Assembly: GCA_026395685.1 (NCBI GenBank)
Contig: JAPLYG010000008.1
Span: 15,225 to 79,224 of the forward strand
Source of the DNA: Candidatus Parcubacteria bacterium
Lineage (GTDB): Bacteria > Patescibacteriota > Patescibacteriia > CAIXNZ01
DNA length: 64,000 bases
Reading direction: 5' to 3'
Shown here: positions 2,662 to 21,998 of the stretch, piece by piece
Layout: each line of letters begins with the position of its first letter
Numbering within the stretch: position 1 is the stretch's first letter
Position numbers and translations under genes: made by a program
Notes under the pieces: generated by a model
Seen by the model: only the letters and a program-made list of their open reading frames with translations
Database searches by the model: none
What the model was told of the DNA's origin: nothing

Positions 2662-3021
2662 CTATTTAAACATTTCATCCGTTTCGGAATCGTCCGGTGG
2701 TTCAGGGGCTGGTGGAGCTTGCATATCAATGAGAAATTGCAAGCTAACGACCTCTGCATCGTCGGCCACATCATACTTGCGAAAATACTCGAGGGAACCT
2801 TCTACGTCGATGTCCCCCATCCTCTCAAGAATCTTACGACAAATATCCAGGTCCTTATCACCCGCTATTCCGGGGAAATCCCAGTCAATCTCGTTATCAA
2901 TAACTTTACCGTCTTTTACTTCAACTGCAGGCACATGGATCCAATTGCAACCTTCTTCGCCTTGAAGTCGGTCCACGAACTCTTGCCAACGAGGATGCTC
3001 AAGGGTCATCACGCTACTCAT
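2662..3021 (-). CDS. small acidic hypothetical protein (119 aa), SD-led
   Basis: Strong SD (AAGGAGGA, 7 nt before ATG) and sigma70-like promoter on minus strand; elevated GC; overlapping plus-strand ORFs lack signals. Confidence 0.55.
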   Translation of the reverse strand: MSSVMTLEHPRWQEFVDRLQGEEGCNWIHVPAVEVKDGKVIDNEIDWDFPGIAGDKDLDICRKILERMGDIDVEGSLEYFRKYDVADDAEVVSLQFLIDMQAPPAPEPPDDSETDEMFK

Positions 3022-3074
3022 TTTTGAATCCTCCTTAGGTTATTACCAGCCAAAGATCCGAAAACCTACAAATT

Positions 3075-3103
3075 ATAATACCATATTTACTTTTTCTTGT
3101 CAA
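3075..3103 (-). promoter_or_regulatory. sigma70-like promoter (TTGACA-17-TATTAT) for 2662..3021
   Basis: Minus-strand TTGACA (3103..3098) and TATTAT (3080..3075) with 17-nt spacer upstream of SD/ATG. Confidence 0.45.
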
Positions 3104-3124
3104 CCCCACTACCCTAGAGGTTTT

Positions 3125-6100
3125 TTATTTTGCCTGTAAAATTATTTTGCCGTTGGATTCACTGGCTGCAAACCCGAGTTCACCAATTTTGCTGCTTCTG
3201 AACAGTTCCACTATTTTTAGAGGCAATTTTTCTTCACTAAAAACTATAGGCATTTCAATATTTTTTTTCAGGGATAAATAATGTAAAATAGTTTCTTCTT
3301 GTTTAGCAGCAGGCACATTATTAAAAAACTTCAAAACTTCCACAATCACCTTGTCTTCTTCATTTTCTTTGCTTAAATAATCAGCCGCCAAAATATAGCC
3401 CAAAACTTCCTTTGCATCCTTGTTTTTTTCCAAAAAGACATTGCTGTGATTGTCGGGAAAATTCAAACCGCCATCCTCATCATCCTCCCCCTTGCCGATT
3501 TTATCCAAAATCGTCTGTGCTTCCTCGATTTCCGCTTTATTCAATTTTTTCAGCAAAGGAGACTCGGAAAAATTATAAATAGCCAGCCCCAGCAGATGCA
3601 GGCCGTCTTTATTTTTAGTATTCTCTGGATCATGAAGCACATAACAGCTCGAGTGTTCAAAGCAATCAGAATATTTCAAGGGCCTCACAGGCTCATATAG
3701 CATATTGGGATTTTCCAGTTCCCCCGTAACCAAACCGCCGTCATCATTATAGCTGGTGCCCAAAATAACCAATTTGTCGGAAAAATGCTTTTTAAAAAAA
3801 TTATTATAGGCTTTGGCAATGGCTGGCCTGTATTTTATGCCCCGGTTGGCAATTTCAATATTATCAACGGCCAAAACAGGGAAATCACGCTTCTTATCTA
3901 AATATTTTTTGTTTGGAATTTCATCCGCCTTAAGCTTGGCTGCAACTAAAACTGACTGGGCAATCATATCTTCCTGACCATATTCATCAACCACGGAAAC
4001 CGTAAAATAAGCAGTATCTTCATGGCTCATGTATTCATAATTAATATCTGTGCCATATCTCATGCAACAGTCTGTGAAATCGCCGGCCACCCAGCCTTTA
4101 GGGTCAGACTTTCTATGAATTTGTACCACCATTTTTTTGCCCTTGATCTCATATTTATTAAGTTTTAAAATATTACGAACACTTTCTTGATCTTCTTTCG
4201 GTATTTCTTCCGCTAAATAATCTGACACTATTTTTTTACCCTGATATTTATCTTTAATAAAGCTTGCCAAATCATTGTATAATTTTTTGGCCTGGCCTGC
4301 TGGTTGCGAGCCATTAATCCCCAAATCAATCAGCTTTAACAGCAGAGCAAAAACCTGCTTATTTTCCGAATCTTTATCTATTGCCAAATCATGCTTTTCT
4401 AAAAATTCATACAGCTTTTTATATTCCTTTTTCTTGAGTAATTTTAAGAAAAAATCCCTAAATGGCGAATCAAAATTCAAATTGAAGCTTTCCTCCTTAA
4501 TATTCTGCAAATTAATAAATTTCCCGCCTTCTTTCAAAATGGCTGATTTATTTAAAGCTACCTTGCGATCATTGCTTAATCTGATTTTTGCTTTTATTTT
4601 CTCCTGTTCGCTGATTGAGCCATCAATTTGAATCGCCTGCAAGCGCGGCTCAAAATCAGCCTTAATTTTTTCTTTACGGTCTTTGTCCTGCCATTCAATT
4701 AAATCAAAAATTGAAAAGTCACCCATAATGCTCGAGATTTTTTCATTTTTGATTAACTGGCCGATTACCGGAATTATTCTTGTTAATTCCTGGCTTGGAA
4801 GCGCATTTTTTACAATTTCATTTAGCGGTGTAATTTCGTATTCTTCCCTTAGCGGCTGAATCAAAGCTTTTTCATCTAAGCCGTCTTGATTTTCCGCCTG
4901 ACGTATGATTAAACCGCTTTTGACATCACGTTCAATCAACCCGATATTAATACCCGGAGCTTTCATCTCTAATATCTTTTCAACAAGTTCCGGCGATAGA
5001 TTATCAGGTAAAATTGAACCCAAGCCGATAAGGTCGATTTGATGCTTGAATTCGGCATAGCTGGCAAAATTATAATTTTCAATATGGTGCAGATTGCGTT
5101 CTTTCCTGGATTGCTGCTGCTTGGTAAAAAGTTCCGGAGAAAACTGATTCATCATTTCATGCAGTTCAAAGGGGTTAGGCGCCTGCTTTATTAAGGTGCT
5201 GAGTATTTCAGGGCTAAAAACATTTTTTTCTTTCAGGGAATCAACGAAAAGAAGTAAATCATGGGTTGAATGGCCCCAATGCTTACTTTTAAATTCAAAA
5301 AACTTTTTAAGGCCGATAATATTTTTCAAATACTCAAAATTTGCTCTTACCTGTCCGGCCCAGACACCTGCTGATAAAATTTTTACTGCCTGTTCATATT
5401 TGGCTTCCGAGGATAAATTTTTGAAAGTTTCCTGCTGATCCTTAATCGCGACAAATTCAGACCCGTTTACACCCAAGTCCTGGGCTAATTTCAGTAAATC
5501 ATCGGTAATTTTTCCAAATGATTCAATATTTTTAGACACAAAGTCAGCTGGCATATCCCAAGAATGCACTCCGTGTTCCAACAATTTAAGTGCAACCTCA
5601 TTATTTAAATGCTTGAATAATTCAAAGTTTTTTACTACCAATGCAATATTTCCATTTTTGATTGATATCAATGCGACTTTATTATGGTCTAAACCCTGAA
5701 ATTTTTCAAAATGAGCTATTATGTACGTTTCATTCATTCGCCGCTCAATAAGCAGATAGGCAATTTCCTGATCCAATGGACCCTGAAATTTGGGTAACAA
5801 TTCCGCAAATGTCCGTAAATTATCATTCTCGATTAACTTGAGAGCAAGGTCATTATCAAAAACCAAGCCCTGGAAGGTTCCCGGCTCTTTAATTGACCAA
5901 TGAGCATTGTGGCTTTCAATTAATTTAATTGCCACATCAGCATCAAGGCCTGTAAAGGACTTATAATAATTATCAACAACCCCGCCTTTTCCCGCTTCAA
6001 TCAATTTAAGAGCTACCTCTTTATCTAAAGAATCTTTAAACCGTGAAATATTATTTTGTAATGTTTCAATTTCTCCCAATTCAATTAATTTAAGGGCAAT

Positions 6101-7183
6101 TTCCTTATCAAAACCAACATTTTCAATGAGGAAATTATTGCTTAACACCTTTTTGCTCTGGCCCACCTCAATCATTTTAATAATTACCTCCTTATCAAGC
6201 CCCCGAAACCTAGCAATGTTATCCAGCAGTATCTCTGGCCTTTTGGCTTCAATAATTTTTAAAGCTATGCTTTTGTCTAAGGTGAAATTTTTAAATCTTT
6301 CCGGATGACCAACCACATACCAAATTTGACCGGATTCTATAAGCTTAAGCGCAAAATCTTTATCTAAACTATCAAATTTATCAAGAATTTTTTCTAGATC
6401 GTAAGCGGCAAACATACCCTTTACCAGCTCCCAGGCAACTTCATTATCCAGGCCGGAAAATATCTCCAGGTTCTTTACTATGGCCGATTTCTGATTATTC
6501 TGAATTAATTTAAGTGCTACATTTTTATCTAAATCTTTAAAGCTTTTAATATGTTCGGCTACCTTACTGCTATGCCCGTCTTCAATCAATTTAAGAGCGA
6601 TTTCTTTTTCAAGTCCGTTTAATTTATTCAGATACCAGCTTAAATCATAACTTCTGCCGGCTGCTATCATCTCTTTAGCGATTTCATTATGGCTAACACC
6701 ATCAAAAAACTTGAATTCCTTAAATAATGTATGGTAACAGGCTCCAGTTTTAATTAATTTAAAAGCAAGATCCTTTTTATCCAAGTCGCGAAATAGTGAA
6801 TCCAGATGTGAAGTCACATATATATCCAAATCGCTTTCAATAAGTTTATAGGCTATGCGCTTTAAATCCACATTTTTATAACTTCTAAGATCCTTTAATA
6901 ATTCATTAATATAGCGCCTTTTCTCAATCATCTTAAAAAAGACTTGCTCGTCCAAGCCACTAAAATAAGAAGCACGGTTTAAAATCAAAGACTCCTGATT
7001 ATGTTCAATCAGTTTGAGCGCAATTTTTTTATGAAATTCGGGCAAAATGTCTTTTAACTGTTCTAAATGAAATCTTTCCCCGGCTTCTATCTGCTTAATA
7101 ATTTGATCAACTGTCGGCTTTTTAAGAGCCGGCTCTTCAATATTATTATTTCCGCCAGCTGGGGGCTCTTCAATTTTTGGCAT
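3125..7183 (-). CDS. giant repeat protein (1352 aa): ~38-aa helical repeat array + C-terminal conserved domain with DCCM motif
   Basis: Long uninterrupted ORF; >15 repeats of pattern F.GLD.E.A.KLIE.G....V..N...F; C-terminal region homologous to 7197..11480 (SDPxxxxxGDxTxCCM). Confidence 0.8.
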   Translation of the reverse strand: MPKIEEPPAGGNNNIEEPALKKPTVDQIIKQIEAGERFHLEQLKDILPEFHKKIALKLIEHNQESLILNRASYFSGLDEQVFFKMIEKRRYINELLKDLRSYKNVDLKRIAYKLIESDLDIYVTSHLDSLFRDLDKKDLAFKLIKTGACYHTLFKEFKFFDGVSHNEIAKEMIAAGRSYDLSWYLNKLNGLEKEIALKLIEDGHSSKVAEHIKSFKDLDKNVALKLIQNNQKSAIVKNLEIFSGLDNEVAWELVKGMFAAYDLEKILDKFDSLDKDFALKLIESGQIWYVVGHPERFKNFTLDKSIALKIIEAKRPEILLDNIARFRGLDKEVIIKMIEVGQSKKVLSNNFLIENVGFDKEIALKLIELGEIETLQNNISRFKDSLDKEVALKLIEAGKGGVVDNYYKSFTGLDADVAIKLIESHNAHWSIKEPGTFQGLVFDNDLALKLIENDNLRTFAELLPKFQGPLDQEIAYLLIERRMNETYIIAHFEKFQGLDHNKVALISIKNGNIALVVKNFELFKHLNNEVALKLLEHGVHSWDMPADFVSKNIESFGKITDDLLKLAQDLGVNGSEFVAIKDQQETFKNLSSEAKYEQAVKILSAGVWAGQVRANFEYLKNIIGLKKFFEFKSKHWGHSTHDLLLFVDSLKEKNVFSPEILSTLIKQAPNPFELHEMMNQFSPELFTKQQQSRKERNLHHIENYNFASYAEFKHQIDLIGLGSILPDNLSPELVEKILEMKAPGINIGLIERDVKSGLIIRQAENQDGLDEKALIQPLREEYEITPLNEIVKNALPSQELTRIIPVIGQLIKNEKISSIMGDFSIFDLIEWQDKDRKEKIKADFEPRLQAIQIDGSISEQEKIKAKIRLSNDRKVALNKSAILKEGGKFINLQNIKEESFNLNFDSPFRDFFLKLLKKKEYKKLYEFLEKHDLAIDKDSENKQVFALLLKLIDLGINGSQPAGQAKKLYNDLASFIKDKYQGKKIVSDYLAEEIPKEDQESVRNILKLNKYEIKGKKMVVQIHRKSDPKGWVAGDFTDCCMRYGTDINYEYMSHEDTAYFTVSVVDEYGQEDMIAQSVLVAAKLKADEIPNKKYLDKKRDFPVLAVDNIEIANRGIKYRPAIAKAYNNFFKKHFSDKLVILGTSYNDDGGLVTGELENPNMLYEPVRPLKYSDCFEHSSCYVLHDPENTKNKDGLHLLGLAIYNFSESPLLKKLNKAEIEEAQTILDKIGKGEDDEDGGLNFPDNHSNVFLEKNKDAKEVLGYILAADYLSKENEEDKVIVEVLKFFNNVPAAKQEETILHYLSLKKNIEMPIVFSEEKLPLKIVELFRSSKIGELGFAASESNGKIILQAK

Positions 7184-7196
7184 AAATATAACTTTA

Positions 7197-10100
7197 TTAT
7201 TTTTTTATCTTCCTGAGTTCCAAACGATGGAATGTCTCGCCTGCTTCTTTCATTTTGGTATCAACTGCTATTTCATAATTATACTGGCCTGCATATTTCA
7301 TAATAATCGGATAAGATGTTGTTTCCCGGCACCTCATCACAATCGGCATTTTATTTAATTTATCATCATTTTCAATTTTTTTCATTAAACCCCAGGCCAG
7401 TTCCATTCCCACCCCTGTTTTCTGTTTGTCCGGATCTACCGCAATATCATGAAAATATATTTTTGTTTCATCCCTGCCTGGTTCTTTTGCCAAATAACCC
7501 AAAACATAGCCGTCTAAAACGCCAGCGTCAGTAAAATGACCTAGCGTCAGAGCATTTGTTTTTTCCTGTTCAGCTTGGAGATTGGAAGCAGTTAATATTT
7601 TCTGCATTGTCGTTATACCTTCAACTAAGGCGGGATTAGAGCCGTATATTTTTTCTTCCAGATAAGCGACCGGAAAAGTATCGCGCCAGCTGATATCCTG
7701 AATGCCAATTCTTTTAGCGCTGTCTTTTGGGGCACCTTCGGGTAATAATTCCAGACATTTGTCATGCAGATTATCAGAATAGCTGATTAGAGCCTGCGGT
7801 AAAAATTCATTGGGCGGTGTTGTTTTAATATTCTTTAAATAATCCAGATATCCCAGGCCAATAACAACTCTGCTATTTTCCATGCCCAATTGCTTTCGAT
7901 ACTCGTCAAAAAAGGCTTTATAAATAACCGATATAATGCTTTCATCATTTTTAATCAGGCGCTGGACCAGATTATTCTGGCCTTCGACATTATCGCAGGC
8001 AATTACATTTTGGCTGTTATAAAATTTTTCCAAAAAATCAGGTCCTAGTGTTTCTTGCAGATTTACCTCTCCGTGTAATCTTAAATCTGTGACTAATTTT
8101 TCAAATTTTTCTTTGCCTATTCCCTTATCCAGGGTCATAATGCTCTGGACTACGATTCTGGCTTCTTCAGGCGACTGGCCTGGCTGGCGGAAGCTCAAAG
8201 TCATGGCTCCGCATTGCGGGGAAAATAAATATACATTTTGTTTACCCGAGCCAAACGGCATACAGCAGGATGTGTCATCCCCGATTGTGGCATAGCGCGG
8301 ATCGCTGTGCGGCAAAATTTCCGCCCTCATAATTATTTCTTCTCCGCTATATTTCAGGCGGTGATCTTCAATGACTGCTTTCATATCTTCAATTAATATC
8401 TTCTGTTCTTCTGGTATTAAATTCTTAACTTCAAATTTTTCCCGTTTAGACTTAATTTTTTTAGCTAAAAATTCCGCCTTAATATCCTTACTCTCCAAAA
8501 TTTGCCGCCAAACTTTTTTAAGATCGTCTTTATCCTTTATTTGTGTTATTTGTTCCAATAAAGCCTCCGAATTATCGCCGAACTTTTTGCCGCTGACAAG
8601 CCCGGCTGCCCGTTCCTGAGTGTATTTTTTTAATTCCTCAAAATCCAAATTTTCAATTATTTTAAAAACTTCCAGGGACTTATTTAAGTCTGCGCTTAAA
8701 TACTGATTGCTGTCTGCCAAATATACTGTGATAAACTTTTCTAAGTTTCCTTCAATCTGCTTGGCTAAATGATCCAATTCTTTTTCTTTGTCCCTGGCCT
8801 CTTTGTTTTTCAAAATCATTGTATAATCTTTGCTATACGGTTTAAATGGTGACATTGTATCAATCTGCCCCTCAACTAACGCTTTAACAATATCCTCGGG
8901 TCTCAAAGCTATCGTATAATATCCGTCTCCCAATTCAGCCCACTGATTGGGCTCCAGTTCTGACTGCAGCTTCTTATTGGCATGGCTATCAGGCAGCTGT
9001 AAAAATCTCTCGGCATCAGTAAACAACATTAATGCCGGCCCCATACCCACTGTCGGATGGGCTATCAGTTTATTGGCATATTCATAAAGCTTGGGATTAC
9101 TTTCCTGCAAGTTATTTAAGGCTTCCTGCATTCTAGGGGTCATTTTTCTTCTCAGCTCCACTTTTTTTCTGAAAGTCTTTACATTTTTAAACCAGCCTTC
9201 TTTTTCAAATTCTTCCCGCCAGCCGGGCTGGAAATTTTTTACCGCATTAACCAAAAGCTGACGGCTATCCATGCCTTCAATACTTACAGCCGAATCCGAC
9301 GCAGTCTGAAGCAGTATATTTTTAAGTTCTTCCTTATTAGTAACTATTTGAAAAAGGTCGGGCAAAAAATACAAAGCATCATGGCGGTCACTGCCTTTGA
9401 TATATTTCCAGGCATTTTCCGTACCGATTAAAGAGGCAAGCTCTTTAAACCAGGCGCATATTTCCCTGTCCCAAATATACCCCGGATTATTTAAAAGAAA
9501 CTCAGCCACCTTATTGACTCTGTTTTTTTTATTTAGTTTTGAAAGCTCATCATAGTGCTCATTAATTTCCCAAAACTCCTTGTGTTCCAAGCCCAAATCT
9601 TTATAATAATTATATTTTTCTAAATTTAATGAAACTTTCTTTTCCTGGCAAAATTTTACCACCTTGTCAGCGCTGGGCATTTCAGCTAAAAGCGCCTCAA
9701 GAATTAACTGGTAATCTCCTCCTTTTAAACCGGTAAATTTTTCCAAATCATCAGCCACCGCCGGCCCCATACCATTATGAATAAGTGCCAAGGCAATCAT
9801 TCTATGATCCAAATCCACAAATTTATGTAAATTATCAAGAACTGTTGTTTCGAAATTTTTTATTATCAATGCTATGGCCACTTCATTATCCAAACCCTTA
9901 AAATAATCAAACTCGAAACTAAGGACCTCCGGAAGGTTAGCATTTATAAAAGCCAAAGCAACATCCTTATCCATTCCCTCAAATTTCGTTAAATTGTCTG
10001 CAACAGCCTTGCCTTGACCATTGGCAATAAGTCTAATAGCCATTGCCTTGTTATTCAGGCCGGGAAATCTATCTATTAGAGTGGCTACTGTATACCCTTC

Positions 10101-11480
10101 ACCGACCTCAATAATCTTATCGGCTATTTCCGCAGGGTCAATATCGCTAAATTTTTCTAAATGTATTACCACAGCAGCACTCTGACCTGCTTCAATCAAT
10201 TTGAAAGCTACCACTTTATCTAAATTATTAAATTTTCCTAAAAATCTTGCTACCAAATCTGCTCTATTTGCCTCAATTATCTTCAGAACTATTTCCTTAT
10301 GATCTAGCCCGATAAAGATGCCTAAATTGAAAATTAATGCATGAGGCCCATCAGCTACTTCAATAATTTTCAGGGCAATCTCACGATCTAAATCTTTAAA
10401 GTCCTCTAAATATCGCACAACCATGAAACCTTTTCCTTGCTCAAAAAGCATTAAAGCGATTTTTTTATAATCCAACTCTTTAAATTTTTTCAAATTCCTG
10501 ACAAGGGCAGAACTCCCAACAAGAGAAGAGCTCACATTATCCTGCATAATAAGCGCCTCAGCAACTTGCTGATAATTAACACCGTTAAATATATCCGGAT
10601 TCTCGGCGACCGGGATCTCCAGTCCTTCTTTAATTAATTTCAACGCTGTTTCATTATCCAGTTCATGAAACCTTCTTAAATATCCTTTTTCAGCGATATA
10701 AGTTTTTCCGCCTCGTACGTTTAATAAAGCTAATAATATTTGTTTGTGGCTGGCTGGATCAAATGCCTCAATTCTTCTTACCACATCTTCTGCCTTGTTA
10801 TTATTAATTAATTCTATGGCAATTTCCTTATGATTTAAACCTCTGAAATTCCCAAGATAGTTAGCCACATTCTCGCCCTCCCCTCTTTTTATAAGTTCTG
10901 AGGCAATTTCCTGATGATCCAACCCTATAAATTTCCCGAGATTTTGAGCCAGACTCCTGCCCTTACCGCTATCAATAAGTTTTGTGGCGACTTCTTTATG
11001 ATCAATTCCTTTAAACTTTTCTAAATAATCAGCAACAAACTCACCGCCTCCATACTCAAACATGGCCCAGACTATTTTCTGATAGTCCAGCCCCTTAAAT
11101 TCTTCTAAATTTGCAGCAACATCTTTACTTCTTCCAGCCTTAATAAGCAGCAACGCAATTTCTTGGTGAGCATGCCCTTCAAGCTTATCCAAATTATTAA
11201 TAATCACAATGGGCCTAATCTTCCAAATAAGACCGGAAATAATATCCCTAGTATTTTTTCCTTTATTATCCTTTATATATTTATCTAATACTTCTTCCTC
11301 CTGCTTTAGAGCTCTTAATTCTTCAACATATATATTATATTCAACTGGGTATTTTTCTTTCAGCTGAGCAGGCGTCAGCTTGTAGTCTTCCTCAGCAATA
11401 TCAAAAGGAACTCCTTTTTTAAATTTCAGAGCTTGATTTTCAAATTCTTCTTCTGATTTTAGATGTTTGAATTCAGGCAT
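7197..11480 (-). CDS. giant repeat protein paralog (1427 aa) with same repeat array, CCM-motif domain and C-terminal GNAT-like segment
   Basis: Same ~38-aa repeats (FKGLDYQKI..KLIE.G), shared SDPRYATIGDDTSCCMPFG motif, C-terminus IYFHDIAVDPDKQKTGVGMELAWGL resembles GNAT motif A. Confidence 0.8.
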   Translation of the reverse strand: MPEFKHLKSEEEFENQALKFKKGVPFDIAEEDYKLTPAQLKEKYPVEYNIYVEELRALKQEEEVLDKYIKDNKGKNTRDIISGLIWKIRPIVIINNLDKLEGHAHQEIALLLIKAGRSKDVAANLEEFKGLDYQKIVWAMFEYGGGEFVADYLEKFKGIDHKEVATKLIDSGKGRSLAQNLGKFIGLDHQEIASELIKRGEGENVANYLGNFRGLNHKEIAIELINNNKAEDVVRRIEAFDPASHKQILLALLNVRGGKTYIAEKGYLRRFHELDNETALKLIKEGLEIPVAENPDIFNGVNYQQVAEALIMQDNVSSSLVGSSALVRNLKKFKELDYKKIALMLFEQGKGFMVVRYLEDFKDLDREIALKIIEVADGPHALIFNLGIFIGLDHKEIVLKIIEANRADLVARFLGKFNNLDKVVAFKLIEAGQSAAVVIHLEKFSDIDPAEIADKIIEVGEGYTVATLIDRFPGLNNKAMAIRLIANGQGKAVADNLTKFEGMDKDVALAFINANLPEVLSFEFDYFKGLDNEVAIALIIKNFETTVLDNLHKFVDLDHRMIALALIHNGMGPAVADDLEKFTGLKGGDYQLILEALLAEMPSADKVVKFCQEKKVSLNLEKYNYYKDLGLEHKEFWEINEHYDELSKLNKKNRVNKVAEFLLNNPGYIWDREICAWFKELASLIGTENAWKYIKGSDRHDALYFLPDLFQIVTNKEELKNILLQTASDSAVSIEGMDSRQLLVNAVKNFQPGWREEFEKEGWFKNVKTFRKKVELRRKMTPRMQEALNNLQESNPKLYEYANKLIAHPTVGMGPALMLFTDAERFLQLPDSHANKKLQSELEPNQWAELGDGYYTIALRPEDIVKALVEGQIDTMSPFKPYSKDYTMILKNKEARDKEKELDHLAKQIEGNLEKFITVYLADSNQYLSADLNKSLEVFKIIENLDFEELKKYTQERAAGLVSGKKFGDNSEALLEQITQIKDKDDLKKVWRQILESKDIKAEFLAKKIKSKREKFEVKNLIPEEQKILIEDMKAVIEDHRLKYSGEEIIMRAEILPHSDPRYATIGDDTSCCMPFGSGKQNVYLFSPQCGAMTLSFRQPGQSPEEARIVVQSIMTLDKGIGKEKFEKLVTDLRLHGEVNLQETLGPDFLEKFYNSQNVIACDNVEGQNNLVQRLIKNDESIISVIYKAFFDEYRKQLGMENSRVVIGLGYLDYLKNIKTTPPNEFLPQALISYSDNLHDKCLELLPEGAPKDSAKRIGIQDISWRDTFPVAYLEEKIYGSNPALVEGITTMQKILTASNLQAEQEKTNALTLGHFTDAGVLDGYVLGYLAKEPGRDETKIYFHDIAVDPDKQKTGVGMELAWGLMKKIENDDKLNKMPIVMRCRETTSYPIIMKYAGQYNYEIAVDTKMKEAGETFHRLELRKIKK

Positions 11481-13297: not shown

Positions 13298-14218
13298 ATG
13301 ATTATAAAAATTAAACCCGAACAAGTTGACCAGCGTCTTGATAAATTTCTAACCAACAACCTGCCTATCACTCGCAGCCAAATCCAGAAACTGATCAAGG
13401 CGGGAAAAATTTTAGTCAATGGCGAACAATCTTCTGTCCATCGTTTTTTAAAAGGAAACGAAGTGATTAAAGTTGTCGCCAAAGATATTGATAAAATTAC
13501 TGAAATAAAAGAACTAAAGCCCAATAAAAGCGTGAAGTTTAAAATTATTTACGAAGATGATAATATATTAGTGATAGACAAACCGGCCGGTCTTTTGGCC
13601 CACCCCACAGAACAAATGGAGCCCAAAACCTTAGCCAGCGGCTTGCTTGCCAGATATCCGCAGATTAAAAATGTCGGAGAAAATAAACTGCGTCCCGGCA
13701 TTGTCCATCGTTTGGATAAAAATGTTTCCGGCCTGATTATAGTCTGCAAGACACAGGAGGCGTTTCATTATTTTAAAAAACAATTCCAAAAAAGAAAAGT
13801 CAAAAAAATTTATACAGCCTTAGTTCATGGTAAAATGGAAAAAAACGAAGGTACTATTGATTTACCGATTGCCCGTTCAAGCAGCAAAGGCAAAATGGCT
13901 GTAAAATCTCAGGCTCAAGGCGGGAAAAATGCCATTACGAAATATTGGCTCAATAAGCAATTCAATAATTTTGCCTTACTGGACATAGAAATTCTAACCG
14001 GCCGCACCCATCAGATCCGCGCTCATTTAAATGCGATCCAGCATCCGATTGTCGGCGACAAACTTTATACGCAGAAATGGGTAAAGGAAAAGCTGGAAAT
14101 TGATCGTCCGTTTTTGCATTCCAGCTATTTAAGCTTCAAAAATTTGGACGGAAAAACGCTGGAATTTAAATCAAAACTCCCTGCAAAACTAATTAAAATC
14201 CTGGAAAATCTAACATAA
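13298..14218 (+). CDS. rluD: RluA-family 23S rRNA pseudouridine synthase (RluD/RluC-like) with S4 domain
   Basis: HRLDKNVSGLIIV catalytic motif, N-terminal S4-like region. Confidence 0.85.
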   Translation: MIIKIKPEQVDQRLDKFLTNNLPITRSQIQKLIKAGKILVNGEQSSVHRFLKGNEVIKVVAKDIDKITEIKELKPNKSVKFKIIYEDDNILVIDKPAGLLAHPTEQMEPKTLASGLLARYPQIKNVGENKLRPGIVHRLDKNVSGLIIVCKTQEAFHYFKKQFQKRKVKKIYTALVHGKMEKNEGTIDLPIARSSSKGKMAVKSQAQGGKNAITKYWLNKQFNNFALLDIEILTGRTHQIRAHLNAIQHPIVGDKLYTQKWVKEKLEIDRPFLHSSYLSFKNLDGKTLEFKSKLPAKLIKILENLT

Positions 14219-14224
14219 GCATTC

Positions 14225-14370
14225 CCGAGAAATAACCAATCAACAATAATCTGCCTGCAGGCAGGTCAATCATCAAACAATTTCAAAAATCTAATATCAA
14301 AATTGGAAATTAGGATTTAGGTAATTAGATATTGTTTGAATATTGATGTTTGATTATTGATAATTATTAA
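14225..14370. repeat. AT-rich dispersed intergenic repeat (TGATTATTGAT/CAATCAACAATAATC motifs) with central CCTGCCTGCAGGCAGG palindrome
   Basis: Related copies at 16030-16140 and 22495-22620. Confidence 0.4.
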
Positions 14371-14411
14371 ATATTTCAGCCTTCATACTTTAGTCTTTAT
14401 ACTTTAGACTT

Positions 14412-14987
14412 ATGTATCAAATTATAACCATCTCAGGCACACCTGGCTCTGGCAAATCAACTATTGCCCAAAAACTCGCAGAAAAACTTAATGCCGAGCG
14501 CATTTATGTCGGCGCTATCCGACGCGAATTAGCCAGAGAAAAAGGTATTACTCTGGAACAGCTCAATGAATATGGGCTGACCCATCCGGAAACAGATGTA
14601 GATATTGACCAAAAAATTGCAATTGAGGCGCGTGAAGCCGCTAAAAAAGGCATAGTAATAGTTGAAGGCAGAGTCCAATTCCATTTTATTCCTGAATCAT
14701 TCAAGATCTTCATTCATGTTGCCGTGGAAGAAGGCGCCCGCCGTATTTGGAAGCAAATGCAGAATGAAGCTGACAAAAAAATGCGCAATGAAGGTGAAGT
14801 TAAAGACATCAATGCTTTGACCGAGGATATTAAAAAAAGGATAGCTAATGATAAAAAGCGCTATAAAAAATACTATAATCTGGACCATACCGACGGATCT
14901 CATTATAACCTTGTCATTGATACCACTAAAATAACCGCTGAGGCGGCAACCGCTAAAATCCTCAAAGCCCTGCCCAAACTTGACTAA
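14412..14987 (+). CDS. cmk: archaeal-type cytidylate (CMP) kinase
   Basis: ITISGTPGSGKSTIAQKLAEKL P-loop; KKRYKKYYNLD and overall 191-aa layout match Cytidylate_kin2 family. Confidence 0.7.
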   Translation: MYQIITISGTPGSGKSTIAQKLAEKLNAERIYVGAIRRELAREKGITLEQLNEYGLTHPETDVDIDQKIAIEAREAAKKGIVIVEGRVQFHFIPESFKIFIHVAVEEGARRIWKQMQNEADKKMRNEGEVKDINALTEDIKKRIANDKKRYKKYYNLDHTDGSHYNLVIDTTKITAEAATAKILKALPKLD

Positions 14988-15102
14988 TTTGACAGTTTGA
15001 GGTAATATTAGCTTACATAAATCCTTCCGGATTTCTTTTTAATTAAAGGGCTAAAACGCCCTAATTTCTTAATTCATACTTCTAACTTCATACTTCAATC
15101 AT

Positions 15103-15462
15103 ATGGCAACTTCAAAAGTAGCAGACAAACAACTCATTGATAAAACTCAAGTTAAACCGGGCATGGTTGTTCGTGTTTTCGTAAAAATTAAAGATGTAAA
15201 TGCCAAAGGCGAAGAAAAAGAAAGAATTCAGGCATATGAAGGCTTGGTCATTGCCAAGAAACACGGCAATGAACAAGGCGCAACAATTACTGTGCGCAAA
15301 ATCAGCGAGGGCATTGGTGTTGAAAGAATCTTCCCCATCCATTCACCCCTCATTGAAAAAATAGAGCTGGTTGACCAAAAAGTAATTCGCCGCGCAAAAC
15401 TTTATTACACGCGCACTTACAAAAAGAGACTTAAATCAATTTCTGAAAAAAAGCATAAATAA
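15103..15462 (+). CDS. rplS: 50S ribosomal protein L19
   Basis: IQAYEGLVIAKKHG..ATITVRKISEGIGVERIFPIHSPLIEKIELV is canonical L19. Confidence 0.9.
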   Translation: MATSKVADKQLIDKTQVKPGMVVRVFVKIKDVNAKGEEKERIQAYEGLVIAKKHGNEQGATITVRKISEGIGVERIFPIHSPLIEKIELVDQKVIRRAKLYYTRTYKKRLKSISEKKHK

Positions 15463-15466
15463 AAAA

Positions 15467-15503
15467 AGACGCCGTCCGGATCCACCGAACGGCGTTTTTT
15501 TGT
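15467..15503 (+). terminator. rho-independent terminator after rplS
   Basis: GACGCCGT..ACGGCGT stem followed by T7 run. Confidence 0.7.
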
Positions 15504-15541
15504 TTAAAAGACGAAGCAGGTGCTTCGCCTTGTTAGACTTA

Positions 15542-15730
15542 CTACCCGAAAACCGGGCAGGCCAGTTCCCTGCAGCTTTCACAGCAGTTCGGACCCTTGG
15601 GCGCACAATGGCGTTCAAAATACCCGGGCTGTCGCAAACTTTCCAGTTCGCGCTCAATCGCCCCTGGATCAAAATCTTCCACGTCACCGTTAGTGCATAA
15701 AATCAGATTATCATCTTTTGCTATGGGCAT
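15542..15730 (-). CDS. small Cys-rich hypothetical protein (62 aa), SD-led
   Basis: AAGGAGG 5 nt before ATG; 6 Cys; GC-elevated segment. Confidence 0.5.
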   Translation of the reverse strand: MPIAKDDNLILCTNGDVEDFDPGAIERELESLRQPGYFERHCAPKGPNCCESCRELACPVFG

Positions 15731-15977
15731 AATTTCCTCCTTTGTCTAAATGTTTTTCTGCGACCATGCGCCTAAGATCGTGATCCTTTGGTGTAAGCTT
15801 AGAATCGGGAATTATCCGCGGATTGTCGCATTGCGATTTATAATCAGGACCTTGAACCATGACTGTTTTGGGACCAATGACTTCAACCACTACTCCGCGG
15901 CGAGTCATGCTCGGATCTGCCACAAAAACCGCTTCCACAAAATCTCCCACTTTCACTACCGCTTTTTCGCTCAGCAT
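15711..15977 (-). CDS. small hypothetical protein (89 aa from second ATG), SD-led; overlaps downstream gene by 20 nt
   Basis: AAGGAGG then ATGCTGATG; start placed at the second ATG for SD spacing; ORF track's longer N-extension starts upstream of the SD (15984-15990) and is unlikely; VGDFVEAVFV...RRGVVVEV beta-barrel-like (KOW/Tudor-like) pattern is a guess. Confidence 0.45.
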   Translation of the reverse strand: MLSEKAVVKVGDFVEAVFVADPSMTRRGVVVEVIGPKTVMVQGPDYKSQCDNPRIIPDSKLTPKDHDLRRMVAEKHLDKGGNYAHSKR

Positions 15978-16146
15978 CAGCATCCTCCTTTGTGGCGATC
16001 TTAGATGAGACAATAACCTCTGTACTATAAACAATCACCAAACATCAATAATCAATTTTCAAACAAATCCTAAATCCAAATATTAAATAACCAATATTTT
16101 TAAACAATTGTTTGATGATTGATTATTGTTTATTGATTATTAACCA

Positions 16147-19023
16147 CTATATCATCTTCTTCAAAAACTGTCCTGTATAACTATTTTTTACTTTAATAAT
16201 ATCCTTCGGAGTGCCCTGAGCAACTATATATCCTCCCTTATCGCCGCCTTCCGGCCCCATATCAATCACCCAGTCAGCGGATTTAATAACATCCAGATTA
16301 TGTTCAATCACTAATATTGTATTACCCTTATCTACTAATTTTTGCAAAACGCCTAACAGCCGGTTGATATCGTCAAAATGCAAGCCGGTTGTCGGTTCAT
16401 CAAGAATATATAAAGTCTTGCCTGTGGCACGGCGTGATAGTTCAGTCGCCAGTTTAACCCTTTGCGCTTCGCCGCCTGACAAGGTCGTAGCGGGCTGTCC
16501 TAATTTAACATAACCCAAACCGACATCGCAGAGAATCATTAATTTATCATGAATAATTGGGATATCTGAAAAAAATCTTTTTGCTTCTTCTACGGGCATA
16601 TCCAAAACTTCGGCAATATTTTTGCCTTTATAATAAATCTCCAGCGCATCTTTAAGATAACGGCTGCCGTGGCATTCTTCACATTCAATATAAACATCAG
16701 GTAAAAACTGCATTTCAATGCGCACCAAGCCTTCACCGGCACAAGCTTCACAGCGACCGCCCACAACATTAAAGCTGAATTTCCCCGCATCAAACCCGCG
16801 CATTTTAGCTTCTGGAATTTGAGTATATAAATCGCGGATATAAGTAAAAACTCCGGTATAAGTTGCGGGATTAGAACGCGGTGTACGTCCAATCGGCGAT
16901 TGATCAACAGTAACAACTTTATCCAAATTGTCCAAACCGACAATTTCCTTATGTTCTGCAGGCTGCTCTTTAGCGCGGAAAAAATGTTTGGCCAAAGCAC
17001 GTGATAAAATATCGATAATCAAAGTGGACTTGCCTGAGCCTGACACGCCGGAAACAGCCACAAACTTGCCCAAAGGAATTTTGCCCTCTACATTCTTCAG
17101 ATTGTTTGCGGTCGCGCCTTTAATGGTAATAAATTTATTATTACCCTTGCGATAAACTTTGCGCGGTTCAATCTTATATTTCCCCGATAAATATAAACCT
17201 GTTAAAGATTCTTTATTCTTCTTAATTTTATCCATTGTGCCGATGTCAACCAATTGCCCGCCGTATTCACCGGCGCCGGGACCAATATCAACAATTAAAT
17301 CAGCTTCTTTCATAATCGCCTCATCATGCTCAACCACAATCACGGTATTGCCCATATCGCGCAACTTTTTCAAAGCATCAATCAGGCGCTTGTTGTCTCT
17401 TTGGTGCAAACCGATTGAAGGCTCATCTAAAACATAAATAATTTCCGTTAAAGACGAGGAAATCTGTTTTGCCAGACGTATTCTCTGCGCTTCGCCGCCG
17501 GCCAAGGTAGTCGCGCTCCTGTCCAAAGTCAAATAATCCAAAGAAACAGCATTTAAATACTCCAAACGTCGTTTAACTTCCTTGATTAACTGCTGAGCGA
17601 TTTTATATTCATTTTCTGTTAAGTTTAATTTCCCCTTATTGGCTTCCGTGCGATACAAACCAGCCTTAGAATTTTTTTCCACCAGATCAAAAAAATCATA
17701 AAGAGTCTGCAAATCCATATTAACCAATTCTGAAATATTCTTATCTAAAACTGTAACCGCCAGGCTTTCGGGTTTTAATCTTTTGCCCTGACAAGTGGGA
17801 CAAATTATTTCTCTCATATAATCCTCGATTTCTTTTTGCACATATTCCGAGTCTGTTTCCCTATATTTCTTTTCTAAATATGGAATAATGCCTTCAAATT
17901 CATGTTTTTTGCCTTCTATCTCAAATTCTTCTTCGCCCGTGCCATATAGGATAATATCAAGTTCTTCTTTTTTAATTTTTTCTACTGGCTTGTCCAGCGG
18001 CACTTTATAATTTCTAGCGACTGTCTGCAGTAATTTATTCATAATCGGCTGATTAGCAGTCAAGCGCGTCCAAACCTTAATCGCTCCTTGTTCAATTGTC
18101 AGACGAGGATTAAAAACCACCAAAAGCGGATCGATTTCCAAACGCACTCCCAAGCCGGTACATTTAGGACAAGCGCCGACCGGAGAATTAAATGAAAAGC
18201 TTCGCAATTCAATTTCCGGCAAATTAATATTGCACTTAGGACAATGCAAATGCTGGGAATAAGTCTGTTCCTGATTATTATCACGCCTTAAAATCGTGAC
18301 CATGCCATTAGCCAGATCCAAAGCTTTATCAACTGCCTGATAAAGCGCTGTTTTATGAATTTTTTCCAATGATGTCTTTTCTACAAAAACATAATCAATC
18401 AGCACATCCATATTATGTTCCGCCTCTTCATCAATCATCATTTTTTCCAGTTCATGCATGCTGAAAATTTTTCCATCTAAGCGCAATTGATAAAACTCAG
18501 CTTTTTTCATTTTTTTTATAACATGATCAAGCTTGCCCTTTTTGCCGATTATTATAGGCGCCAAAACAGCAACCCGAGTTTGAGGCGGCAATTCAAAGAC
18601 TCTTTCCACTATTTGTTGCGCAGTCAATTTTTTAATCGGCTGTCCGCACTTAGGACAGTGAACTATTCCGATTCTGGTAAATAAAAGACGGAGATAATCA
18701 TAAATCTCCGTAATAGTTCCAACGGTTGAACGCGGATTATTGGATGTAGTTTTTTGATCAATGGCAATAACCGGAGAAAGCCCTTCGATCTGATCAACAT
18801 CAGGCTTATCCATTACGCCGATAAACTGGCGGGCGTAGGAAGATAAACTTTCCACGTATTGCCTCTGCCCCTCGGCAAAAATCGTATCAAAGGCCAAAGA
18901 AGATTTGCCTGAGCCGGATAAACCGGTAATGACAATAAACTTATTCTTGGGAATTTCCACATTGATATTTTTCAGATTGTGGACGCGCGCGCCTCTGATA
19001 ATGATTTTGTCTTGTTTGGGCAT
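16147..19023 (-). CDS. uvrA: excinuclease ABC subunit A
   Basis: 958 aa; two ABC ATPase modules ([25 protein letters not shown]), zinc-finger cysteines, LSGGEAQRI signature. Confidence 0.95.
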
Positions 19024-19304
19024 AAAAAAATAGTTTAGAGTTCAAAATTTAAAATGCAAAATTACAATGTGTAGTTTAAAATTTATGTAGATTATTAAAA
19101 TATATATTCCAAAATTTTTAATTATTAACTGTCCCGAAGGGATCCCTTTGGGATAACTTTGCACTTTACACTTTGAACTTTTAATTCAATAAGCACCGAT
19201 TACAAACATTCTATCATGCCTGTCAAGACTGGTCAAGAGGGTAAGGGTAGAACGTGCAAAATAATCAAAAAACGCCCTGTTTTCATAAGGCGTTATCTTC
19301 TCCG

Positions 19305-19357
19305 GCTCTTACACTTTTTTATCCGCCATAGCTTTAGCGGAGGCGGAAGTGTAAGAG
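19305..19357. repeat. GC-rich hairpin element (TCCGCC-ATAGCTTTAGCGGA-GGCGGA core inside longer stem) in hairpin-dense intergenic region
   Basis: Member of the GAAGCTTTAGC-loop hairpin family (see 17-41, 2341-2366, 35399-35426). Confidence 0.5.
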
Positions 19358-19427
19358 CTTCGTACCTGAACACTAAAGTGTTCAGGCCTTTATTTTTCTT
19401 GGCCTTTTGCCTATTGGCTAATGGCAA

Positions 19428-20327
19428 TTACTTCAAATTATATTTGGCAATATTGTCATTGCAAATTTTCTGTAAAATTTTTATCTGTTCCGCTCCTTTC
19501 GGATCCTTGAACAAATGCTTAAACCTGGCGTGATACTTTAAATATTCATCAACCTTAGGAGCATCCTGAGGCACTTTCATGGAACTTACCAATTCCCCGT
19601 TGACAAATTCCACTACCGGGAAAAATCCTGTCTTTTGCGCCAATTTGCCTAGTTCAATCGCCTGATTATCCTCAATTCCCCAGCCTGGCACGCACGGCGT
19701 TAAAATATGGATAAACTTTGGGCCGGGTGTGTCCCAGGCTTTTTTTACTTTGCGTTTAATATCTTCAATATATCCTGAAGTAGTAGTTGCCACATAACCT
19801 ACTCGGTGCGCTAAAGCAATCTCCAACATATTTTTTTTAAACATTCTATTACCTAAAGATTTTTTACCTGGCCAGGTTGTGCGCGTAAAAGCGTCAAGAG
19901 GCGTAGCGCCTGAAGCCTGGTAGCCGGTATTGGAATAAACTTCGGTATCATAACAAACATATAAAATATTGTCCCCGCGCTCCCACATGCCGGAAATCAA
20001 ACCAAACCCAATATCAAAGGTGGAACCGTCACCGCCTTGCGCCAGGACTTTAACTTTTCCGTCCAGGCCTTTATGTTTTATAGCTGCTAAAATACCGGAG
20101 GCGACTGCTGAAGGATTTTCAAACAAAGAATGAATCCAGGGAACTTTCCAGCTTGAAGTCGGATGCTTTGATGTTGTCACTTCTAAACAACCCGTGGCAT
20201 TGGCAATAATTGTATCGGGACCGCAGGCGTCAATCACATGACGCGCAGCAATCAGCTGGCCGCAGCCCGGACAAGCAGTGTGGCCGGGATTGAGTAAGTG
20301 TTCGAATGGGTTAGTATATTTTGGCAT
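19428..20327 (-). CDS. porB: pyruvate:ferredoxin (2-oxoacid) oxidoreductase beta subunit (TPP-binding)
   Basis: CPGCGQLIAARHVI, GGDGSTFDIGF TPP motifs. Confidence 0.85.
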   Translation of the reverse strand: MPKYTNPFEHLLNPGHTACPGCGQLIAARHVIDACGPDTIIANATGCLEVTTSKHPTSSWKVPWIHSLFENPSAVASGILAAIKHKGLDGKVKVLAQGGDGSTFDIGFGLISGMWERGDNILYVCYDTEVYSNTGYQASGATPLDAFTRTTWPGKKSLGNRMFKKNMLEIALAHRVGYVATTTSGYIEDIKRKVKKAWDTPGPKFIHILTPCVPGWGIEDNQAIELGKLAQKTGFFPVVEFVNGELVSSMKVPQDAPKVDEYLKYHARFKHLFKDPKGAEQIKILQKICNDNIAKYNLK

Positions 20328-20491
20328 ATTATATATTTATACCCTGCTTTAGCAGGCAAACAATCTTTTAATGACTAATTTTTAAGTATTAATTTTTATT
20401 GAATTTTTAATGACTTTATTTCTAATTTTATTCATTATCATATTAAATCATTATTTAAAAATTATAAATTAAAAATTAATAATTAGACATA

Positions 20492-21649
20492 CTATCTTCC
20501 AACAAATCCTATTTTCCCAGTCTTAACCTTGGCCAAGTCAACAATGTCACTTATCATCTTTTCCGTAATATCACGTCCTCCCAAACCAACGACAAAGGAA
20601 CTTATCTGTGCTTTCAATTGCCCATAGCAGGCGCGCTTAATTTCAGTCGCTAAAATACCCTCAGTACCGATGGAAATGGCTTTATCTACTACGGCAACAT
20701 ATTTAACTTTGCTCAAAGCCTTAACAATCTCAACATCAGGAAACGGTCGGAAAGAAATTATTTTTAATAAACCAACTTTTTTTCCCTTGGTTCGTAATTG
20801 ATCAATCACCTCTTTAATTGTCCCGCAAACAGAACCCATGGCCACTAAAATGATATCAGCGTCTTTGGTTTTGTATTCTTCAATCAAGCCATTACCGATG
20901 CCACGGCCAAAAACTTTTTTAAATTCTGAATTTTGCCTGACAATTTCTTTTTTGGCAGCCGCAACATCTTCAAATAGCTCCTGACGGATTTCCAGATAAC
21001 GTTCTGGCGTAGCAAAAGTTCCCAGAGAACGTGAATTAGCAGTATCAAGGGTTGAATCTTTAGGAGCAAGGTAATCGGGCAGGAATTTCTTAATCAAACT
21101 TACTTCAGGGATTTCCACTGATTCAAAGGTATGAGTCAGCACAAAGCCATCCATATTGACCATAACCGGCAACATTAAACTCTCGGCCAGTTTATACGCT
21201 AAGATATGCAAGTCAACTGCCTCCTGATTTGTTTCTGCGTAAAGTTGCAGCCAGCCTGCATCACGGATGGTAACTGAATCCTGCTGATCATTCCAGATAT
21301 TTATCGGCGAAGAAATTGCGCGATTGGCACAGGTAACCACCACCGGCAAACGCATGCCGGCAATATTAAATAAAACTTCAGTCATTAAAAGAAGTCCTTG
21401 TGAAGAAGTTGCCGTATAAGTCCTGACACCGGTAGCGCTCGCGCCCAAAACCATGGAAGCAGCGCTAAATTCCGATTCCGCATTGATAAATTCAAAATCA
21501 GCCTCGCCATTATCTTTCATCTTGGCCAAGTCCTCCACAATATGCGTCTGAGGTGTGATCGGATAAGCCGCCACAACCGCCGGCCGCAAATTTTTCATAA
21601 TTTCCGCGACCGCATGGGATCCTTCGACGATTTGTTTTTTAGTATTCAT
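20492..21649 (-). CDS. porA: pyruvate:ferredoxin oxidoreductase alpha subunit
   Basis: 385 aa, typical PorA layout, operon context with porG/porD/porB. Confidence 0.85.
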   Translation of the reverse strand: MNTKKQIVEGSHAVAEIMKNLRPAVVAAYPITPQTHIVEDLAKMKDNGEADFEFINAESEFSAASMVLGASATGVRTYTATSSQGLLLMTEVLFNIAGMRLPVVVTCANRAISSPINIWNDQQDSVTIRDAGWLQLYAETNQEAVDLHILAYKLAESLMLPVMVNMDGFVLTHTFESVEIPEVSLIKKFLPDYLAPKDSTLDTANSRSLGTFATPERYLEIRQELFEDVAAAKKEIVRQNSEFKKVFGRGIGNGLIEEYKTKDADIILVAMGSVCGTIKEVIDQLRTKGKKVGLLKIISFRPFPDVEIVKALSKVKYVAVVDKAISIGTEGILATEIKRACYGQLKAQISSFVVGLGGRDITEKMISDIVDLAKVKTGKIGFVGR

Positions 21650-21779
21650 AATATTTTAAGTATGAAGTCCGAAGTACGAAGCTCGAAATTTAACTTCAGC
21701 CTTCATTAAAGCTTGACTTTTTTAAAAAATAGTAGTATATTTAAATGTTCCAAAAACTTAAGAGAAAGGAGCTTCCAAA

Positions 21780-21998
21780 ATGCCAAATGAACATGGTCAG
21801 GTTACCGTAGGCGACTTCAAAGCCCCTCCGGGTCAGTATCGAATCACTCGCGAAGACATGGAAGATGGCGCCCTGTACATCATCGCTGACATTTTCAACT
21901 ATGAGTGCGCGATTATAATTACCAACTGGCTGCGAGAGGAAGACGAAAACTCTGTCTTTTTGCTCTGGGATGATAAGGGCCAGGAAATTATCTGCTAA
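21780..21998 (+). CDS. small hypothetical protein (72 aa), SD-led, GC-elevated
   Basis: AAAGGAG ~11 nt upstream of ATG; sits between porA and porD on opposite strand. Confidence 0.4.
   Translation: MPNEHGQVTVGDFKAPPGQYRITREDMEDGALYIIADIFNYECAIIITNWLREEDENSVFLLWDDKGQEIIC

Follow-up and report, generated by a model that had tools for sequence, protein, structure and literature searches.

Small Shine-Dalgarno-led genes as members of a probable fast-evolving accessory compartment in a Parcubacteria lineage with two kinds of start site

The 64,000-nucleotide (nt) stretch of DNA from a Candidatus Parcubacteria bacterium analysed here (the window; contig JAPLYG010000008.1, positions 15,225 to 79,224) carries four small open reading frames (ORFs), encoding 119, 88, 62 and 72 residues, each of which is preceded by a Shine-Dalgarno (SD) sequence, whereas the housekeeping genes around them are SD-less. 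We favour, with a probability of about 0.6, the view that these ORFs belong to a clade-wide, fast-evolving accessory compartment in a Parcubacteria lineage that uses two start-site grammars. In one of these, housekeeping genes, and also defence, restriction-modification (RM) and giant genes, would start without an SD, behind leaders that are A/U-rich, G-poor and weakly structured, the default route probably depending on accessibility of the start together with pairing of U(-1) with A37 of the initiator tRNA. In the other, the accessory genes would form self-contained units, in which an SD of the AAGGAGG type stands 5-10 nt upstream of the ATG, GC content is higher both overall and at third codon positions (GC3), a TTGACA-N17-TAnnnT promoter is often present, and a hairpin followed by U residues forms the terminator. 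Pairing of SD and anti-SD may then serve to bring the 30S subunit to mRNAs whose GC-rich, structured starts would be beyond the reach of the default route.

Results

SD-led and SD-less genes in the window

SD strength was scored as the duplex free energy (dG) between ACCUCCUUU and the 17 nt ending 3 nt before the start codon, and 48 curated genes of the window were classed with a cut-off of dG <= -7 kcal/mol. Thirteen of the 48 reach the cut-off, compared with 2.5% of random 17-mers. The four small ORFs are among them, at -11.1 (119 residues), -11.8 (88 and 62 residues) and -8.2 kcal/mol (72 residues), whereas queA, cca, rluD, cmk, rplS, uvrA, porABDG, rnj and ileS score close to 0. An earlier note, made by reading the letters of the window, had described the four as small, GC-elevated ORFs with AAGGAGG-type SDs in a genome whose housekeeping genes lack them, and this description is confirmed: the coordinates are correct, all four SDs are present (that of the 72-residue gene being the weaker AAAGGAG), GC is 0.47, 0.52, 0.46 and 0.47 against an SD-less median of 0.38, and the 62- and 88-residue genes do overlap by 20 nt in different frames. 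The same note had extended the pattern to a GC-rich block, to two paralogues at 54734 and 56504, and to a gene at 49465; all of these are SD-led, but the last three have a GC of only 0.38-0.42, so that the coupling between an SD and raised GC is only partial.

Among the 48 genes, those that are SD-led are shorter and have higher median GC (0.47 versus 0.38, p=8e-5) and GC3 (0.49 versus 0.38, p=0.0012). Twelve of the 13 are without a Pfam match, as are 5 of the 35 SD-less genes (Fisher p=1e-6); housekeeping identities confirmed by Pfam comprise queA, cca, rluD, cmk, rplS, uvrA, porGDAB, dsbA, secG, an SBP_bac_5 solute-binding protein, RNase J, glycosyltransferases, ruvA, a U32 peptidase, pepA and ileS. 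Canonical promoters lie upstream of 7 of 13 SD-led and 6 of 35 other genes, a difference that is only suggestive as a class marker because many SD-less genes are internal to operons. A census of all SD-preceded starts in the window gave no further intergenic SD-led ORFs.

The same division in related genomes

Cluster members, a TrmB regulator and homologues of the small proteins led to the loci of relatives. L001, L014 and L015 represent the nearest relative (one JGI contig), L003 a more distant JGI contig, L004-L007 a lineage named Uhrbacteria in NCBI, and L009-L013 five GTDB species representatives labelled Parcubacteria, Falkowbacteria, Buchananbacteria and, probably mistakenly, Gammaproteobacteria; the gene order and the 70-90% identical core proteins of the locus with the last label (L011, CAYNWH010000001.1, titled 'uncultured Gammaproteobacteria bacterium') match the Parcubacteria clade.

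Eight related genomes together contributed 184 genes, of which 54 are SD-led. SD strength is bimodal, with 52 genes at or below -8 kcal/mol, 7 between -8 and -4, and 125 above -4; it reaches -13.1 kcal/mol in the relatives, and in all 33 SD genes measured the spacing to the start is 5-10 nt (mode 6). The two sets also differ in start context. U stands at -1 in 90 of 130 SD-less genes as against 5 of the 54 SD-led ones, G makes up 8% versus 29% of positions -20 to -1, and the median minimum free energy of the start region is -3.8 versus -6.2 kcal/mol (p=5.5e-4). The T(-1) bias fits a start signal acting through four-base pairing with A37 of the initiator tRNA, and such U(-1):A37 quadruplet pairing has been described (PMC10018350); that an SD aids initiation on structured leaders has also been reported (PMC3155529). 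An N-terminal hydrophobic segment is present in 30 of 54 SD-led versus 23 of 130 SD-less products (p=7e-7), which suggests that more than half of the SD-led genes encode secreted or membrane proteins; the remainder encode tiny acidic, Cys-rich or small-barrel proteins. A role of the SD-led products at the cell surface, or in interaction with hosts or phages, is probable.

In the window and in L001, L003, L004 and L009-L013, T occupies -1 in 69-76% of SD-less and 6-9% of SD-led genes. SD-less leaders contain 3-8% G over -15 to -1, with peaks of A at -6 and -10/-11 (e.g. 15073-15102 before rplS), and the G-poor leaders of core genes (e.g. 13258-13297, 14373-14411, 15073-15102 and 21650-21700) are composed of the short words ACTTCATACTT, CTTCGG and ACTTTAGACTT in repetition. 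Together with repeats of the AT-rich TTGATTATTGAT at 14324, 16100, 22578 and 35520, these words constitute an intergenic motif family. Concerning a substitute, non-canonical SD in the core leaders, no k-mer is enriched there beyond A/U-rich words. Leaderless mRNAs were considered for the SD-less genes and ruled out; many of the leaders have no -10 box at the right distance, and the AT-rich hexamers that precede SD-less genes sit too near the ATG for a leaderless reading.

Conservation of the small genes and turnover of their slots

The four small ORFs are NCBI hypothetical proteins (MCX6739949.1, MCX6739956.1, MCX6739957.1 and MCX6739961.1) and are singletons at 90% clustering; comparison with the relatives argues that they are real protein-coding genes. 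Three of them, of 72, 88 and 62 residues, have syntenic orthologues at 39-69% identity, with nonsynonymous differences per site (pN) of 0.17-0.44 versus synonymous differences (pS) of 0.70-0.93 (0.17-0.30 versus 0.81-0.93 for the 72-residue gene and 0.39-0.41 versus 0.72-0.81 for the 62-residue gene); as in core genes, synonymous sites are saturated. An SD at the proper distance is found in every orthologue of the 72-, 88-, 62- and 163-residue genes (the last being that at 49465) and of the GC-rich block, and it stays as the flanking leader sequence diverges. Because the SDs persist despite saturated synonymous sites, the small genes and their SDs appear to be functional and not recent arrivals; the lineage would therefore have kept a working anti-SD.

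The conserved gene order is cca-rluD-cmk-rplS-(island)-uvrA-porBA-porDG-dsbA-secG-SBP-rnj-(block). Between the window and the nearest relative core proteins are ~85-91% identical, compared with 29-62% for SD-led orthologues. That relative has the GC-rich block and the 88-residue, 62-residue and 49465 genes in syntenic positions, whereas its loci contain no counterpart of the 119- and 72-residue genes or of those at 54734 and 56504. In other species the queA-cca, cmk-rplS and uvrA-porB slots are filled by unrelated SD-led genes, and no homology was found between occupants of the same slot (the 119-residue protein and one of 103 residues in L013; the 72-residue protein and one of 73 residues in L009). 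These observations support the proposal that SD-led genes are a distinct class in slots between conserved core genes, and would be explained if fixed slots gain, lose or exchange genes over long periods, with individual genes residing there for a long time. The high GC3 of SD-led families may be maintained by selection, by repeated import or by biased gene conversion at recombination hot spots. The combination of an SD with high GC should be read with caution as a sign of recent horizontal transfer, since here both are stable traits of a gene class.

A gene at 62778-63959(-) is SD-led (GAAGGAG) yet well conserved, being 91% identical in the nearest relative (L014 4485-5714), so the SD class is not strictly confined to fast-evolving genes. 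Its counterpart in that relative carries the Pfam domain MJ0043_C, and its GTG start may be mis-set in the window.

Table 1. SD-led genes of the window and their associated elements (aa, amino acids; pI, isoelectric point)
Feature	Position	Strand	Remarks
119-aa acidic protein gene, pI 4.1	2662..3021	-	ORF; exact NCBI protein MCX6739949.1, hypothetical
SD AAGGAGG, 8 nt before ATG of 119-aa gene	3030..3036	-	dG -11.1
Sigma-70-type promoter TTGACA-N17-TATTAT with TG, 119-aa gene	3075..3103	-	11/12 positions
Intrinsic-terminator-like hairpin and T-run, downstream of 119-aa gene	2609..2636	-	
88-aa basic protein gene, pI 9.2, downstream of uvrA	15711..15977	-	
SD AAAGGAGG of 88-aa gene	15984..15991	-	conserved in L001 and L003
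62-aa acidic protein gene	15542..15730	-	ORF, homologues
SD AAAGGAGG of 62-aa gene, within 3' end of 88-aa ORF	15736..15743	-	
Strong terminator hairpin (11 pairs, 8 GC) after 62-aa gene	15469..15495	-	
72-aa acidic protein gene, pI 4.1, antisense between porA and porD	21780..21998	+	
Promoter TTGACT-N17-TATATT of 72-aa gene	21713-21741	+	-35 conserved in L004 and L007
SD AAAGGAG of 72-aa gene	21765-21771	+	conserved in L004 and L007
Terminator hairpin after 72-aa gene	22021-22046	+	
Palindromic element GGGCGAAAACGCCC (22060) ... GGGCGTTTTCGCCC (22146) around inner hairpin, past terminator	to 22146	+	
GC-rich (0.49-0.58) SD-led block, five secreted/membrane protein genes: 28360, 29877, 30769, 31837, 33661	28150..35001	+	
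Three paralogous promoter regions of 45 nt	28150-28194, 30652-30696, 33386-33430	+	TTGACA-N17-TAATAT with TGC, then CCCTATTAAA
163-aa SD-led gene	49465-49956	+	TTGACA promoter 49396; GGAGGT SD 49452-49458
128-aa SD-led membrane-anchored protein gene, 56504 paralogue	54734..55120	+	
149-aa SD-led membrane-anchored protein gene, 54734 paralogue	56504..56953	+	36% identity

Individual loci

The promoter of the 119-residue gene is the best promoter match in 2400-22350. A single homologue of its product, 75% identical and of matching length, was found among 5.8 billion proteins, and its AlphaFold2 model, with a mean predicted local distance difference test (pLDDT) score of 43, gives no confident structure. 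Two giant proteins of 1352 and 1427 residues are encoded by adjacent, SD-less genes at 3125-7183(-) and 7197-11480(-); they carry internal repeats of ~81-87 nt (~28 residues) and have no Pfam or PADLOC match. The queA-cca slot of the nearest relative is occupied by a defence island (PemK/SocA, GmrSD, an AAA ATPase and a methylase).

The 88-residue protein is confidently predicted to fold as a small SH3/Tudor/KOW-like beta-barrel with a C-terminal helix; its family has ~5 representatives among 1.8 billion proteins, and their alignment shows conserved residues. In the 62-residue protein a C-terminal Cys motif, C-x(4-12)-C-x2-C-x4-C-P, is conserved. The position of the 62-residue gene's SD inside the upstream ORF suggests translational coupling of the pair, and the terminator that follows probably also ends rplS, because T-runs flank both of its sides. 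Homologues of the two proteins are encoded directly downstream of uvrA in L001 (62% identity for the 88-residue and 47% for the 62-residue protein), which holds two paralogues of the former, and in L003 (41% and 33%), where the pair is non-overlapping; in L005 and L012 the 62-residue gene occurs without its partner. The pair resembles a type II toxin-antitoxin (TA) system in layout, both genes being small and co-oriented, with an overlap between them and a terminator behind the downstream one, but the predicted barrel seems closer to Tudor/KOW-type folds than to MazF or CcdB. A TA identity found no support, Pfam and PADLOC giving no toxin or antitoxin homology and the partners not always occurring together.

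Two further gene families were noted in the rplS-uvrA island, neither with a member in the window. TrmB-family regulators, SD-less and 63-89% identical (L001 16110-16850; L003 11755-12507; L004 3267-4004; L009-L013; L014 170-979 and 7304-8101), are found in the islands of eight genomes. In the nearest relative they also stand divergently next to other SD-led clusters, which makes them candidate transcriptional regulators of SD-led genes. A family of signal-peptide proteins of ~205 residues (L001 11062-11679; L003 13915-14535; L009 6316-6951; L011 7127-7753; L012 530-1162; L013 7649-8272) has a GC3 of 0.47-0.76 against ~0.3-0.4 for the genomes and is only 36-52% identical between species.

The 72-residue gene splits the por operon (20492-23163, -) into porGD and porAB. 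Its orthologue, 69% identical, occupies the same porA-porD slot in L004-L007, and a homologue at 58% lies in L008 behind two other SD-led membrane-protein genes; the alignment of the family shows conserved residues. The gene is missing from L003, L010, L011 and the nearest relative. In L003 and L011 porD and porA are adjacent, and in the nearest relative (L015) the slot holds an SD-less, AT-rich GNAT acetyltransferase gene. On the uvrA tree the 72-residue gene occurs in two different subclades and is missing from the sister of one. The porA of L015 (3076-6761) encodes 702 residues, and its faint Pfam matches to Hint, intein-splicing and LAGLIDADG domains suggest an intein insertion.

The palindromic element past the terminator of the 72-residue gene is dispersed, with copies of GGGCGAAAACGCCC ... 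GGGCGTTTTCGCCC at 22060-22146 and 13154-13250 and single copies near 15048 and 48076 (6 matches versus 0.35 expected), and flanks an inner hairpin of 61-77 nt. The inner 77-nt segment is inverted between L004-L006 and L007, 73 of 77 nt being identical after reverse-complementing (L004 10296-10398; L007 2677-2779), which reflects either DNA inversion at the strain level or an assembly artefact at the palindrome.

The GC-rich block is syntenic in the nearest relative, where gene order, SDs and a GC3 of 0.58-0.77 are kept at 29-50% protein identity. Its promoters lie 88-246 nt upstream of the SD-led genes, implying long 5' untranslated regions, and its Big_7 and TSP3 domains are 40-58% identical to bacterial proteins from outside the Candidate Phyla Radiation (CPR) over short stretches. 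Short CCC(U)-loop-(A)GGG hairpins, such as TTCCCTGAAGGGAA-AGGAGG, stand directly 5' of the SDs of several island genes (29845-29870, 30745-30760, 31810-31830 and 33635-33655 (+); also ~6830-6850 in L013), and could be processing or stabilising hairpins or SD-modulating elements. An orthologue of the 163-residue gene, 30% identical, lies in L014, and both promoter and SD are conserved in it. Among RNAs, tRNA-Ala is the sole Rfam match of the window at the gathering threshold; a bacterial class A RNase P RNA at 35523-35964(+) scores 99.7 bits with a gathering score of 100, and a 93-residue ORF that partly overlaps it (35365-35646, -) is probably spurious.

Searches for relatives outside the clade

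Family searches of Pfam, PHROGs and PADLOC returned nothing for the four small proteins, and a sequence search of the PDB nothing credible. Phage relatives were found neither in IMG/VR nor among GenBank phages, and a fold search of BFVD gave none at E <= 0.001; CPR phages are poorly represented in these collections. In the sets of 5.8 billion and 1.8 billion proteins there are no full-length homologues outside the small clade. Matches of the 72-residue profile to OspA and to a de novo TIM barrel were rejected as compositional, with zero significant stretches. The genes next to the small ORFs are queA, those of the giant proteins, rplS, uvrA and the por genes, and no integrase, att repeats, phage structural genes, flanking tRNA or direct repeats were found near them. 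The genes for PemK, SocA, GmrSD, the AAA ATPase and the methylase (L001), for GNAT (L015), and the type I RM gene of the window are SD-less and AT-rich; since defence genes in the same slots are of this kind, an SD is no general mark of foreign DNA here.

Discussion

The persistence of SDs across saturating divergence, the strictly two-peaked distribution of SD strength and the rapid evolution of SD-led genes between slowly evolving neighbours are consistent with the proposed accessory compartment, but other explanations have to be weighed. That the small ORFs are not genes, both they and the SD-like motifs having arisen by chance in regulatory or intergenic DNA of higher GC, is highly improbable; all four are annotated as hypothetical and without a family match, and the 119-residue ORF, overlapped by an antisense ORF, is without a confident structure, but 13 SD-led starts compare with ~1 expected, pN is well under pS in the orthologues, the 88-residue protein combines conserved residues with a confident fold, conservation extends to length, SD spacing, promoter and terminator, and the 119-residue protein has its homologue of matching length. 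An origin as recent foreign DNA, in the form of phage remnants or TA/immunity cassettes whose donor SD and GC have not yet ameliorated, would account for the elevated GC and GC3, for self-contained units with promoter and terminator, and for the patchy distribution on the uvrA tree, where the 72-residue gene is shared by the window and L004 and missing from the nearest relative, L003, L010 and L011. The different context of that gene in L008, the unrelated occupants of the same slots in other species, the short Big_7 and TSP3 matches to non-CPR bacteria, the TA-like overlap of the 88- and 62-residue genes, and the small size and acidity (pI 4.1-4.5) of three of the four proteins point the same way. 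We nevertheless consider this origin unlikely: syntenic orthologues extend across saturated lineages with SD and high GC3 persisting, full-length homologues beyond the clade are lacking in both large protein sets, no integrase, tRNA or direct repeats flank the genes, the 62-residue gene occurs without its partner, and those mobile defence genes that can be recognised in these slots are AT-rich and have no SD. Of the earlier note's reading, a distinct class is supported, with turnover of the slots on long time scales, and recent arrival is not; searches of Pfam, PHROGs, PADLOC, BFVD, IMG/VR and GenBank phages lent no support to a toxin/immunity-like, defence or phage origin.

A further alternative is a translational regulon, in which the SD would mark mRNAs for a specialised ribosome state, by analogy with the bS21-deficient ribosomes and rpsU of Flavobacteriia; surface and interaction proteins could then be switched as a block, e.g. 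between free and host-attached states. It is in keeping with the bimodality of SD strength, with a coherent SD-led set enriched for N-terminal hydrophobic segments, with SD conservation under saturating divergence, with precedent in Bacteroidia (PMC9976891, PMC13000453), and with the frequent absence of bS21 and shortened bS1 in Parcubacteria (PMC9297842). We think it improbable, as ribosome heterogeneity is without direct evidence (rpsU, rpsA and the 16S gene are not among the sampled loci), the SD-led fraction of ~27% is far above that of Bacteroidia, and a constitutive SD pathway accounts for the same data. A related extension, that there are two separate initiation systems, with a distinct GC3 regime and an SD route that would place the entire host-interaction repertoire under ribosomal control, whether by heterogeneous ribosomes or by an anti-SD exposed only under certain conditions, is possible but doubtful.

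Several points weigh against the two-grammar compartment itself. The sample comprises ~64 kb of the source genome and ~185 kb of relatives, some loci having been picked because they contain an island; the gap in start-region structure is modest, at ~2.4 kcal/mol; the assignment of secreted and membrane proteins rests on a crude hydrophobicity threshold; and the genes at 49465, 54734 and 56504 are SD-led without elevated GC. With regard to the anti-SD, an Rfam scan of the window and eight loci found no rRNA, so the 3' end of 16S rRNA is unseen, and about half of Parcubacteria are reported to be without the CCTCCT motif (PMC9297842). SD-like motifs inside coding sequences are not depleted relative to synonymous-codon shuffles (observed/expected 0.87 for GGAGG, z=-1.5, and 1.14 for AGGAGG, control motifs varying as much), and so offer no separate indication that an anti-SD is active.

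CPR bacteria have reduced, unusual ribosomes. The clade studied here offers a natural contrast within single genomes, ~70% of genes being SD-less, with G-poor leaders and U(-1), and ~30% carrying textbook, conserved SDs. For metagenome-assembled genomes of this kind, gene finders gain a two-model start signal, and a compact set of candidate surface and interaction genes is flagged where most genes are without annotation. The results also make testable whether the anti-SD is present and accessible, and whether SD-led translation is constitutive or switched.

The closest known parallel is with the Bacteroidia (Flavobacterium johnsoniae, Bacteroides), whose ribosomes are reported to ignore the SD except in a specialised state (PMC9976891, PMC13000453). 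There, as here, nearly all housekeeping genes are SD-less with A-rich, unstructured leaders, and a minority keeps strong canonical SDs. In contrast, the phylum is another one, the SD-led share is ~27% here as against ~3% or a single gene, the SD set consists of fast-evolving accessory genes enriched for N-terminal hydrophobic segments and not of rpsU, and the strongest start-context signal is U at -1 and not the A positions of Bacteroidia. A system of the Bacteroidia type would have its anti-SD sequestered by bS21, bS18 and bS6 and an SD on rpsU; the window and loci are without rpsU, rpsR, rpsF and a 16S gene.

The anti-SD-lacking Parcubacteria of Tsurumaki et al. 2022 (PMC9297842) belong to the same phylum-level group, and SD-less housekeeping genes fit a weaker reliance on the SD; however, about a quarter of the genes here have conserved SDs at the correct spacing, which speaks for a retained anti-SD, and a split between gene classes within one genome is not described in that work. 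Hypervariable surface-protein loci and genomic islands are alike in having fixed positions between core genes, diverged or replaced contents, atypical composition, and a dominance of proteins with N-terminal hydrophobic segments. They differ in that integrases, tRNA targets and flanking direct repeats are absent from the SD-led slots, and in that the class described here is defined by a translation signal unused by the rest of the genome and keeps its atypical GC3 across saturating divergence.

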